Assembly (NCBI GenBank): GCA_045605805.1
Contig: JAZUQR010000010.1
Coordinates: 1 to 64,000 of the forward strand
Reading direction: 5' to 3'
DNA from: Alphaproteobacteria bacterium
GTDB taxonomy: Bacteria; Pseudomonadota; Alphaproteobacteria; CAAHEQ01; UBA3637
DNA: 64,000 nt
The notes under the pieces were generated by a model. The model saw only the letters and a program-made list of their open reading frames with translations. It made no database searches and was not told where the DNA came from. Positions 6,821 through 9,356 of the stretch are shown piece by piece. The stretch's first letter is position 1; each line of letters begins with the position of its first letter. Both the position numbers and the translations under genes were made by a program.

Positions 6821-7011
6821 TGTGACCTCCATTTTTGACTCAGTATATCCTTTTTTTTACAAAATGAAAAGTGTTTTTTTGATTTTTTATCATACATAGA
6901 TAACCATTTGACATATAATCATATTTTTTTCATATTTAGGGCTAGATTTTTTCTTTTTTCCACCCCAAAGTTATTTTGCTTCAAATGATCATTTTAAGAA
7001 AGGAGAATCAC

Positions 7012-7605
7012 ATGAAGAAGTATTTATTATCAACTTTAGCCATTGCCGGTTTGTTTGGGATAACAACCACAGTACAAGCGGCCGATGGTGACTTAAACAC
7101 CATGAATATGTCTGACGGATATGCCGTTATGCAGGCCGGTATGGGTTTTGGGCATCAAGACTATAAAGAATCGGCTGTGTTTGCCGTTGGTGGCGGTTAT
7201 CATTTGAACCGTTATTTGAAATCAGACTTAACAGTTGGTATGCGTGCTTGGGGTAAAGTCAAAGAATCCGGTATCAGCTCGGATATTTGGACAATTCCGG
7301 CCTTGATGAATGTTTACGCCTCTATGCCATACAGACACTTTGAACCCTATATCATGGGCGGTTTGGGTGCTGCTTGGAACAAGGCTGACAGCACCTCTTT
7401 AACAAAAGGCGACAGCAAAATGTCCTTTGCGTGGACATTAGGGGCCGGTATCGGTTATCGTTTAAGCGATTGCTGGGGCTTGGATTTAGGCTATCGTTTT
7501 GTTGATTTAGGCGAAGCTCGTTCTAAATTCAAAGACGGTTCCGGCCGTATTAAACGAGATATCAAATCTCATGATGTTATGCTTTCTGCACGGTATTATT
7601 TCTAA
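7012..7605 (+). CDS. Small outer-membrane beta-barrel (opacity/OmpW-like family)
   Basis: Signal peptide, EPYIMGGLG, FAWTLGAGIGY, LDLGYRFVDLG, C-terminal ARYYF. Confidence 0.85.
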   Translation: MKKYLLSTLAIAGLFGITTTVQAADGDLNTMNMSDGYAVMQAGMGFGHQDYKESAVFAVGGGYHLNRYLKSDLTVGMRAWGKVKESGISSDIWTIPALMNVYASMPYRHFEPYIMGGLGAAWNKADSTSLTKGDSKMSFAWTLGAGIGYRLSDCWGLDLGYRFVDLGEARSKFKDGSGRIKRDIKSHDVMLSARYYF

Positions 7606-7621
7606 AACTGGATGAAGCACA

Positions 7622-7658
7622 AAGGGGGCGTTCTTACGATAAGAACGCCTTTTTTTTG
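7622..7658 (+). terminator. Intrinsic terminator insulating the downstream pilin promoter
   Basis: GGCGTTCTTA-CGA-TAAGAACGCC followed by a T tract. Confidence 0.85.
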
Positions 7659-7677
7659 TAAAATGTTAAAAAATAGG

Positions 7678-7706
7678 TTGATATTTGCAAATATCTTCTT
7701 TATACT
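7678..7706 (+). promoter_or_regulatory. Sigma70-type promoter driving the structured leader and Hint-pilin
   Basis: TTGATA (7678-7683)-N17-TATACT (7701-7706). Confidence 0.7.
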
Positions 7707-7714
7707 TTTTTTTT

Positions 7715-7905
7715 GGAATGAGTGATTCTCGTTCTGTGGTGTAGAAAGCCACTCAGTTGCGTCCGTGTGACGTTAAAATTCCAACCCTAACGGTTGGAAG
7801 GTTGCAGAATAAGATGTATTTGTATCAAATATGTCCAATATGCAGCACTATTCAACTGATAGCTTTCTAACTTCCAACCGCCTCTCATCAAGGCGTGTTT
7901 TTTTT
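7715..7905 (+). ncRNA. Putative structured leader/antisense RNA with attenuator (C4/CI-like architecture)
   Basis: 10-bp outer helix 7791-7800/7871-7880 closing two hairpins; competing hairpin 7779-7799; boxes 7853-7859 and 7862-7869 complementary to 7753-7759 and 7742-7749; terminator 7879-7905. Confidence 0.6.
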
Positions 7906-7928
7906 ATTCAAAAAAGGAGAAAGCAAAA

Positions 7929-9356
7929 ATGAAACAAACAACACAAGAGTCTGGCCGTTCTATGGTTGAAATGCTGGGCGTTTTGGCTGTGATTGGGGTG
8001 TTATCTGTGGGTGGCATTTCGGGCTATACGCTGGCCATGAACAAATATCGGGCCAATGAATTACTTGCCGCCACAAGCAAACAGGCAATTTTATTGGCCA
8101 CTCAATTAAACCGAGCTACTGTTGGCACTCTGCCCCTTGAGGCTTCTTTGTCAGACCATTTTACACAAGCAAGTGCTTTGAACAACGGTCAATTTGAACT
8201 TGGGTTGAAACAGATGGATCCGTCTGTTTGTGCGCAATTACAATCTGTGTTGGGTAAAGAACAGATATTTAGAGTAGATGAGGACTGTACAACAATTACC
8301 TTTAATCAAGATTTATCCCCCCTGTCTAACAATGGTTCAGGTGGTTCCGGCACAGGTTCGGGTGATGGCACCGGTACAGAACCGGAAACCCCGATTGATC
8401 CATGCGCTGATGTGACTTGTCCAGACAATGCCACCTGTCAAGAAGGGGAATGTGTTTGTAATGAGGGATACGAAGGCGAAAATTGTGACTTTCGTTGCCA
8501 GGGGGCCCAGTGTTGGTGGGACGATAATTGTACAGCCGAGAATAACGCTTACTGTGCCGAACAAAATACACGTTGTCAAACAGTTTATGCCCACCTTCAA
8601 ACGGACGAAGCGGCATGTGTAGCAACACTTCCTTCCCAAGACCAAGATGCTGGTCCCTTTGGTGGGGTTATGTACTCTTTTGGCCGATGTGTCTGTGTCT
8701 ATACATGTTTTCCGGCTGATACACTTATTCGGTTGGCCGATGGCACAACGAAGCGGGCCGATGAAATCACCTATGATGATGAACTGCTCGTGTGGGATTT
8801 TGACAACGGACGCTTTGCTTCGTCCAATCCTTTATGGATTAAAGTTGCCGAAACTGCACACCAATATAACTATTTAAGGTTCAGTGACGGTTCGGTGTTA
8901 AAAACCATCAATCAACACCGTATCTTTAACAAAGAAGCCGGCAAGTTCACCTATCCAATGTCTGATGAAACCCCCATTGGCACAACAACCTTTAATGCCA
9001 AGGGTGAATATGTGACTTTGGTGGAAAAGAAAGTGGTGGAAGAAGATGTGGTATTCTATAACATCATTACTGATTACCATATGAACTTGTTTGCCGATAA
9101 CATTCTTACTTCTTGCCGCTTGAACAATATCTATCCGATTCAAGACATGAAGTTTGTTAAAGATAATCGGGCGTTGGTGTCTTATGATGTTTATGCCTCA
9201 TTAGACAAAAAATGGTATGACGGTTTGCGTTTGGCCGAACAACCATTGGATATCAATCGGGATAATGCCGATAATCATGGCGATAAATCTGTGATTGAAT
9301 ATGTCCAACGTTTGATTCGTATGGCTCAACCATATTCAAACAAACAAGTTGCCTAA
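7929..9356 (+). CDS. Type IV prepilin-like protein with EGF-like Cys-rich region and C-terminal Hint (Hedgehog/intein-like) domain
   Basis: MKQTTQESG|RSMVEMLGVLAVIG leader; Gly/Ser linker; CADVTCPDNATCQEGECVCNEGYEGENC EGF-like; Hint from CFPADTLIRLADG (aa 260) to FYNIITDYHMNLFADNILTSC (aa 396). Confidence 0.85.
   Translation: MKQTTQESGRSMVEMLGVLAVIGVLSVGGISGYTLAMNKYRANELLAATSKQAILLATQLNRATVGTLPLEASLSDHFTQASALNNGQFELGLKQMDPSVCAQLQSVLGKEQIFRVDEDCTTITFNQDLSPLSNNGSGGSGTGSGDGTGTEPETPIDPCADVTCPDNATCQEGECVCNEGYEGENCDFRCQGAQCWWDDNCTAENNAYCAEQNTRCQTVYAHLQTDEAACVATLPSQDQDAGPFGGVMYSFGRCVCVYTCFPADTLIRLADGTTKRADEITYDDELLVWDFDNGRFASSNPLWIKVAETAHQYNYLRFSDGSVLKTINQHRIFNKEAGKFTYPMSDETPIGTTTFNAKGEYVTLVEKKVVEEDVVFYNIITDYHMNLFADNILTSCRLNNIYPIQDMKFVKDNRALVSYDVYASLDKKWYDGLRLAEQPLDINRDNADNHGDKSVIEYVQRLIRMAQPYSNKQVA

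Follow-up and report, generated by a model that had tools for sequence, protein, structure and literature searches.

The stretch analysed here (64,000 nucleotides (nt), positions 1 to 64,000 of contig JAZUQR010000010.1 in assembly GCA_045605805.1; hereafter the window) carries at 7678-7931 a structured 5′ leader upstream of a gene for a pilin-like protein. This segment is probably one copy of a family of cis-acting leaders of ~185 nt, each with its own promoter and terminator and working by a four-strand attenuator logic, and read-through into each gene and its translation are most likely controlled by the leader. A cis-acting attenuator of riboswitch-like character is the best reading; as all pairings fit within one transcript, cis action is the simplest explanation. 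The original prediction for this DNA had proposed a switchable leader akin to the C4 and CI RNAs of phages. Folding, homology and covariation bear out its core, namely a real, switchable, structured leader before a pilin-like gene. The leaders make up a new and well-supported family, an abundant cis-regulatory RNA absent from Rfam 15.

Homologous leaders, on whose existence the original prediction had been made to depend, were readily found. BLAST of the leader against its own genome (1.21 Mb, 31 contigs) returned two more copies, located before two lipoprotein genes, and the three copies show compensatory changes in 15 of 56 predicted pairs. A covariance model of 183 positions and 47 pairs (R1) was built from these three copies. 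R1 matches once in the window, and its matches in the own genome comprise five good ones and a doubtful one. In the order, which is represented by a single family in the collection searched, matches were obtained in 72 of 80 genomes, with 1-33 per genome (0.7-2.0 Mb) and ~440 in all. In a sample of the class with one genome per family, 10 of 151 genomes matched, which adds eight families beyond the window's own. An exact scan of 185,579 species genomes with the most conserved 25 bases gave 49 stretches, 47 of them titled as uncultured gut or rumen Alphaproteobacteria or 'proteobacteria', e.g. CAG:495. The carriers are presumably those that GTDB names RF32 and CAG-239. As far as searched, the class is confined to small-genome gut and rumen Alphaproteobacteria without a cultured model. 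Two leaders, L066 and L090, come from short contigs (3.2-3.4 kb) that had been assigned to Gastranaerophilales and Bacilli bins; they are identical to leaders of proteobacterial records and so look like binning errors, probably not a wider distribution. None of the 80 loci returned by a metagenome scan with an over-loose degenerate pattern of the terminator loop matches R1.

With Rfam 15, no family matched the whole window at gathering thresholds; over 7560-8000, with E values up to 10, nothing covered 7707-7878 and no C4 hit appeared. A description of the element was not found in the literature searched, supplementary motif lists lying outside that search. The leader family would add a large structured RNA class to those that Rfam 15 holds. 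The copy numbers are lower bounds: in the genome G088, 6 of 30 leader copies lie less than ~600 bases from a contig end (C21:22-237, C20:241-452, C9:457-667, C3:252-459, C16:221-432 and C5:372-579), which suggests that repeated units of leader and pilin gene break short-read assemblies.

The strongest evidence for the structure comes from covariation. Pairs were counted in 80 model-aligned leaders, 63 of them distinct, over the nested fold and two tertiary pairings. Among the 63 distinct leaders, 93.8% of cells are paired and 45 of 54 pairs have changed on both sides. None of 500 shuffles equalled the observed pairing, and sliding the partner by 1-3 columns lowered it to 30-42%. The counts for single helices are collected in Table 1 together with the coordinates of the window copy. 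The original prediction had asked for a covariation test of the helices and of the box/target pairs; with homologous leaders, covariation was found for both. Its claim that a loop box and a bulge box pair with upstream sites is likewise upheld by the counts for the helices P1 and P1b. The small hairpin PKh, as a 4-bp hairpin of the type NNGG/CNNN, is found in 102 of 103 distinct leaders compared with 267 of 2060 shuffles (13%), and its covarying types include GAGG/CCUC, UAGG/CCUA, AAGG/CCUU and GUGG/CCAC. Since box 1 is the loop of this hairpin and pairs with a downstream strand, P1 is a pseudoknot. A hairpin at the site of hairpin II is seen in 97 of 103 leaders versus 682 of 2060 shuffles (33%), a moderate support. 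G-U pairs are common (GU at columns 4/46 in 44 rows, for example); read from the opposite strand they would turn into A-C mismatches, which assigns the structure to the RNA strand given here. The letters of the internal loop of P4 are conserved across the aligned leaders. A conserved and covarying structured domain in the 5′ leader, as expected of a riboswitch, is thus present.

The window copy itself folds far more stably than expected from its composition. The minimum free energy (MFE) of RNA 7712-7935 is -68.9 kcal/mol, while 200 dinucleotide-preserving shuffles have a mean of -45.1 (sd 4.3; z -5.48), none of them being as stable as the leader. In the MFE fold, three hairpins (P2, A:B and P4) are enclosed by one long helix made of P1 and P1b; P0 precedes this helix and the terminator-like hairpin T comes after it. 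On reading 7400-8300 of the window, all elements and complementarities named in the original prediction were located where it had placed them. Its overall fold stands in part: the elements are there, the MFE structure is a different one, and the outer helix that it proposed (CGGTTGGAAG at 7791-7800 with CTTCCAACCG at 7871-7880) is an alternative conformer that has support from covariation. Within P4, GTTGCA (7801-7806) and TGCAGC (7841-7846) enclose GATGTATTTG-TAT-CAAATATGTC (7813-7835). Two extensions of the helices were rejected. GAGGC:GCUUC, proposed by RNAalifold as an extension of P1, has a 5′ strand that covaries with the local CCUC instead, and an extension of P4 by A7799-U7849 and G7800-C7848 is broken by rows L031 and L029.

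Table 1. Features of the leader in the window and of the gene downstream, with pairing counts among the distinct aligned leaders
Feature	Position	Strand	Sequence and description	Cells paired	Pairs changed on both sides
Promoter, sigma-70-type	7678-7706 (TTGATA 7678-7683, TATACT 7701-7706)	+	TTGATA-N17-TATACT; 10/12 consensus matches
P0, 5′ hairpin	7715-7735	+	stem 7715-7722 with 7728-7735; loop UGAUU 7723-7727; from covariation	95.8%	8/8
PKh, small hairpin	7736-7752	+	GUGG 7736-7739 with CCAC 7749-7752; loop holds box 1
Box 1 (P1 5′ strand)	7742-7749	+	UAGAAAGC (DNA TAGAAAGC); pairs with 7862-7869 (DNA GCTTTCTA) to form P1	99.7% (P1)	5/6 (P1)
Box 2 (P1b 5′ strand)	7753-7759	+	UCAGUUG (DNA TCAGTTG); pairs with CAACUGA 7853-7859	95.5% (P1b)	7/7 (P1b)
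P2, short hairpin	7760-7772	+	CGUC/GACG; from folding and covariation	93.3%	4/4
Strand A	7779-7786	+	UUCCAACC (DNA TTCCAACC); pairs with strand B	92.1% (A:B)	4/7 (A:B)
Strand B	7792-7800	+	GGUUGGAAG; pairs with A or C
P4, long hairpin (hairpin I)	7801-7846	+	A-rich internal loop GAAUAA opposite CAAUA; variable tip	95.1% (P4a)	6/6 (P4a), 2/2 (P4b)
Hairpin II	7848-7862	+	CUAUU/GAUAG (CTATT-CAACT-GATAG); overlaps P1b 3′ strand 7853-7859
P1 3′ strand	7862-7869	+	GCUUUCUA; also complementary to 7918-7924
Strand C	7871-7879	+	CUUCCAACC; pairs with strand B
T, terminator-like hairpin	7879-7905	+	CGCCU-CUCAUCA-AGGCG, then UG and U8; from consensus scan	99.0% (T stem)	5/5 (T stem)
Ribosome-binding site	7914-7919	+	AAGGAG; overlapped by AGAAAGC 7918-7924, a second copy of box 1
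Start codon	7929-7931	+	ATG
Controlled gene, 475 aa	7929-9356	+	pilin-like N-terminus G|RSMVEMLGVLAVIGVL, Cys-rich EGF-like middle, Hint-like C-terminal part

The leaders are laid out as transcription units of their own. Of 97 distinct leaders, 90 have a promoter of the form TTGNNN-N16-18-TANNNT in the 50 nt upstream, and for 79 of the 90 there are 3-4 nt between the end of the -10 element and the start of the model, so that by sequence the transcript should start a few bases 5′ of the first hairpin, P0. At the other end, the T stem is followed by at least 6 T in 10 bases in 95 of 103 leaders. A G+C-rich stem and U-tract before the gene, the signature of an intrinsic terminator or attenuator, are present, termination itself being predicted. 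The ATG follows the model end at a median of 18 nt, within 40 nt in 58 of 60 cases, and only ~10-30 nt separate the U-tract from the start codon. This leaves no space for a second promoter, which means that the gene is expressible only by read-through. The OMP (outer-membrane protein) beta-barrel gene upstream in the window (6976-7605) ends in a strong terminator at 7618-7657 (GGGGGCGTTCTTA...TAAGAACGCC stem, then T8), and as this terminator lies ~20 nt before the -35 element, the leader unit is insulated from upstream transcription. A leader peptide was considered and discarded, the 8-codon open reading frame (ORF) MSDSRSVV at 7718 not being conserved in the paralogs.

The free-standing nature of this layout suggests another explanation, a small RNA gene without any cis role, e.g. 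a protein sponge or a structural RNA. Promoter, compact fold with two pseudoknot-type contacts and terminator do amount to a complete transcription unit, and the contact between 5′ hairpin and terminator loop described below would fit a stable, closed RNA. Nevertheless, this is quite improbable, since the gene a few nucleotides beyond the U-tract must depend on read-through, the element always has the same orientation to its gene, the complementarity to the ribosome-binding site (RBS) is enriched and covarying, and the copy number follows the number of envelope genes, as in G088 with its pilin-like genes.

The terminator hairpin carries a further feature. Although its stem covaries, the loop CUCAUCA is conserved, which one would not expect of a plain terminator. 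A first hint of a pairing between the P0 loop and the T loop (UGAU with AUCA) came from two aligned rows. With the prediction of this kissing contact set beforehand, all 11 T-loop variants that match the search pattern in the 80 genomes were fetched and aligned. All 11 carry a compensating P0 loop, or 13 of 13 when the two earlier rows are included: CGUCA is found with (U/C)GACA in 3/3, CACCA with UGGU(G/U) in 7/7 and CACUA with UAGUG in 1/1. These cases correspond to perhaps 5-7 independent lineages, six being paralogs in one genome. Judged from these paired changes, the loop of the first hairpin of the RNA contacts the loop of its last, the terminator hairpin. Such a Watson-Crick kiss from first hairpin to terminator loop is unusual for a leader. 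This contact, the small hairpin and the pairing B:C are outside R1.

The second line of evidence concerns the central strand B, which can pair with A or with C. In the window, the hairpin TTCCAACC (7779-7786)/GGTTGGAA (7792-7799) was correctly recognized in the original prediction as a competitor of the outer helix, and both helices covary. B:C is 98.1% paired; columns 221/346 have GC in 27 and AU in 23, and columns 222/345 have CG in 27 and UA in 25. As A:B and B:C each show double changes, both of the mutually exclusive helices are maintained. Mutually exclusive pairings that touch the terminator or the RBS, as in riboswitches, are thus found in the leader.

The third line links the leader to translation. 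The 3′ strand of P1 contains GCUUUCU, which is complementary to AGAAAGC (7918-7924) at the RBS of the window gene, and forcing the pairing 7862-7868:7918-7924 gives -66.1 kcal/mol, 2.8 above the minimum. In most relatives, the complement of UAACUUCC, a segment that runs from the end of P1 across the linker into C, is GGAAGUUA at the RBS. The complementarity of the 3′ box to the RBS region, noted before for the window alone, is therefore a property of the family. Among 49 leader-associated genes, 22 have GGAAGTT in the RBS window, versus none of 352 others in the same loci; GGAAG is there in 26 of 49 versus 30 of 352. Matched variants were also observed, AGCUUCC with GGAAGCU and UUUAACUUCC with GGAAGUUAAA. 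The 3′ segment of a leader forms a more stable mean duplex with its own RBS (-9.2 kcal/mol) than with those of others (-8.4 kcal/mol), and none of 2000 permutations equalled this.

Taken together, the pairings can be arranged in a mechanism of four-strand attenuation. P1 and B:C would keep the pyrimidine-rich 3′ segment in the fold and leave the RBS free, while pairing of A with B would let the 3′ segment go, by which the RBS would become masked. The kiss between P0 and the terminator may help or hinder the weak 5-bp terminator, and a factor binding to the conserved core might set the choice between the states. As to the nature of the trigger, a small-molecule or second-messenger ligand is tentatively placed first. 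In its size, its two tertiary pairings and its conserved junction letters the leader is closer in appearance to an RNA that binds a ligand than to the operator of a protein, and in our view the ligand-sensing riboswitch that the original prediction gave as its alternative is the likelier kind of trigger. A protein is a less likely trigger, as is, to the same degree, a purely kinetic or thermal effect or one of mRNA stability with no dedicated trigger; an RNA acting in trans is improbable in this role. Cyclic di-GMP (c-di-GMP) is the leading guess for a ligand, from the nature of the regulon. Two GGDEF proteins are encoded in the own genome, and 76 of 80 genomes of the order have them. Cyclic di-AMP was dismissed because there is no DAC domain in the genome; RelA/SpoT is present. 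If the trigger is a ligand, the family is an orphan riboswitch class with more than 400 sequences ready for biochemistry; if it is not, the leaders represent a new way to wire attenuation.

Several points weigh against the reading of the leader as a cis-acting attenuator. The alignments were fitted to R1 and are biased to its structure. The nested B:C state of the window copy has -60.2 kcal/mol, 8.7 above the minimum, and by this estimate it could compete only with the help of the pseudoknot or of a bound factor. No clear antiterminator was identified, as the overlap of B:C with the T stem amounts to just 1-2 bases. In the comparison of own and other RBS duplexes some start codons are mis-called, and the Fisher and permutation figures treat related copies as more independent than they are; the RBS motif might also persist merely as part of a duplicated module. 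By a crude rule, 10 of the 60 downstream genes have no export signal. Four leader-bearing genomes of 95-98% completeness (G068, G071, G076 and G079) give no GGDEF match, which speaks against c-di-GMP in particular. Finally, the transcript start, the 3′ end, read-through and any switching are deduced from sequence.

Leaders with mutually exclusive pairings are known from the classical four-segment attenuators and from anti-Shine-Dalgarno/anti-anti-Shine-Dalgarno switches. The leader described here resembles them in that B pairs with A or C, C pairs with B or the RBS, and a terminator lies in the leader; it differs in having no leader peptide and in placing the switch within a pseudoknotted fold with conserved junctions. 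The c-di-GMP-I and -II (GEMM) riboswitches are multi-copy leaders before genes for pilins, adhesins, surface proteins and exopolysaccharides. The multiple copies, the surface-gene regulon and the retention of GGDEF in the carrier genomes are shared with them. In contrast, the present leader is larger and of another architecture, and four carriers lack a GGDEF hit. The original prediction had seen no c-di-GMP-I hallmarks, in agreement with which neither the c-di-GMP-I nor the c-di-GMP-II model of Rfam matches. In corrinoid riboswitches, a kissing loop between L5 and L13 couples the aptamer to the expression platform (PMC10653944). The likeness is that a hairpin loop of the expression platform is paired with a loop of the sensing domain, by which the fold is tied to termination or RBS access (PMC10653944). 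The differences are that the partner here is the terminator hairpin itself and the other loop is that of the very first hairpin of the RNA, and that there is no B12-box, no Rfam cobalamin match and an unrelated set of genes.

The C4 RNA of phages P1 and P7 and the CI RNA of phage P4 are structured RNAs in the leader of the gene that they control, and their boxes and targets covary between variants. The present family is similar in that the RNA is embedded in a leader, its boxes are complementary to upstream and RBS sites, and boxes and targets change jointly. An exposed box with complements both upstream (7742-7749) and at the RBS (7918-7924) was found at 7862-7869. The differences are considerable: the leader is ~185 nt long with seven helices, compared with ~77 nt for C4, it is chromosomal, its pairings are in cis, and its terminator has a loop-loop contact. 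Membership in, or descent from, the phage C4/CI family, as originally supposed, is not supported, since no Rfam family matches over the core even with E values up to 10. A phage or prophage immunity region was not found either; the neighbours in the window are non-phage genes, and homologous copies are on contigs of bacterial metagenome-assembled genomes. The resemblance in box logic to C4/CI has some merit as an analogy; the family assignment fails.

The most detailed view of the boxes comes from G088, where a pilin-like gene lies downstream in 25 of the 27 copies with enough downstream DNA. Its 30 copies have 12 variants of the P1 box and 20 of the P1b box, whereas only 3-4 are seen for P0, P2 and T. 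Full pairing is found for the cognate strands of 27 copies out of 30, compared with 39 of 870 cross-copy combinations. This diversification of box pairs among paralogs, with the remainder fixed, is unusual for a leader. In two copies, L122 and L123, the 5′ and 3′ P1 boxes do not match, and each fits the box class of other copies. As both are near contig starts, they may be chimeric assemblies or real products of recombination between copies.

The pattern in G088 fits cis pairing and is also suggestive of selection for distinct addresses. With P1 and P1b diversifying while the rest is near-invariant, each of up to ~30 surface genes would carry its own matched code. Terminated leader RNAs, or a factor that reads the boxes, could then act in trans on cognate copies in an address-coded network of surface genes, which we regard as an unlikely but not negligible extension of the cis mechanism. 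If true, it would allow mutually exclusive or individually switchable expression of surface antigens and would mean that an uncultured gut lineage has arrived anew at the immunity logic of phage C4/CI and uses it for antigenic variation. A combination with the invertible segment considered below might occur in some genera.

A stricter C4/CI-like antisense mechanism, in which a processed small RNA (~7791-7880 or the whole terminated leader) acts through its boxes in trans on its own or paralogous mRNAs and so selects among paralogs for expression, draws on much of the same evidence. As in the C4 scheme, a single 3′ box has two complements, one upstream and one overlapping the RBS; boxes and partners covary, and the box diversity and cognate matching in G088 resemble an address code of the immunity type. 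Moreover, the terminator behind nearly all copies makes it probable that the leader also exists as a free RNA of ~190 nt. Nevertheless, we consider this mechanism improbable, and slightly more so than the address network. Neither a C4 nor any other Rfam family matches the core, and there is no phage context around the window copy. Every pairing can be satisfied in one molecule, and cis pairing has the kinetic advantage. Each element is joined to its own gene, as seen from the short distance to the ATG in 58 of 60 cases, and the absence of the family RBS motif GGAAGTT from all 352 non-leader genes means that there are no outside targets in those loci.

The remaining explanation, the weakest, is a repeat at the DNA level, a miniature mobile element or a recombination site of surface cassettes with an incidental RNA fold: up to 33 copies in genomes of ~1.3 Mb, several copies at contig ends, the two G088 copies with non-matching boxes, a leader copy (L028) fused directly to a truncated pilin gene, and a ~30-nt inverted repeat flanking 111-117 nt downstream of the G088 leaders would agree with it, but compensatory changes in seven helices and in the loop-loop contact with strand-specific G-U pairs cannot be yielded by selection on DNA, no terminal inverted repeats or target duplications were seen around the element, and its position relative to promoter, terminator and start codon is fixed.

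Turning to the genes that the leaders precede, a downstream ORF could be called for 60 of 74 distinct leaders. The 60 genes comprise 10 pilin-like genes, 15 with a lipobox, 25 with an N-terminal hydrophobic segment and 10 with none of these. Many products of the hydrophobic-segment class are OMP beta-barrel or Opacity-like proteins, and two GT8 genes were included in it under the crude rule. The class without an export signal consists mostly of glycosyltransferases, including GT2 and GT1/4. The leader family thus appears to govern much of the surface proteome, that is, pilin-like proteins, lipoproteins, outer-membrane proteins and glycosyltransferases. The window protein combines a pilin-like N-terminus (G|RSMVEML) with an EGF/teneurin-like region and a weak Hint (intein/hedgehog-type) region at residues ~257-337, an architecture that is unusual among pilin-like proteins. 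Pfam assigns EGF_Teneurin at 7.1e-6; its Hint match, at 8.7e-4, does not reach the cut-off. The own genome has one prepilin peptidase, Peptidase_A24, and the genes neighbouring the leader unit in the window encode an OMP beta-barrel protein, RNase R, a cyclophilin and a bPH_2 protein.

Two further arrangements were observed next to pilin-like genes. Most G088 leaders are separated from the pilin-like gene by an additional conserved stretch of ~200 nt, which the window copy does not have. This stretch contains an inverted repeat of ~30 nt (81-83% complementary) around 111-117 nt, located at 1322-1353/1465-1496 in L100 and at 1734-1762/1880-1908 in L104, and it might invert as a phase-variable segment or fold into a long RNA hairpin. 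In L028 (1490-1675, minus strand), the leader joins ATGGTGGAAATGCTG (MVEMLG...) directly, so that a pilin-like gene without leader peptide follows a leader without U-tract; recombination, decay to a pseudogene or misassembly may account for this fusion.

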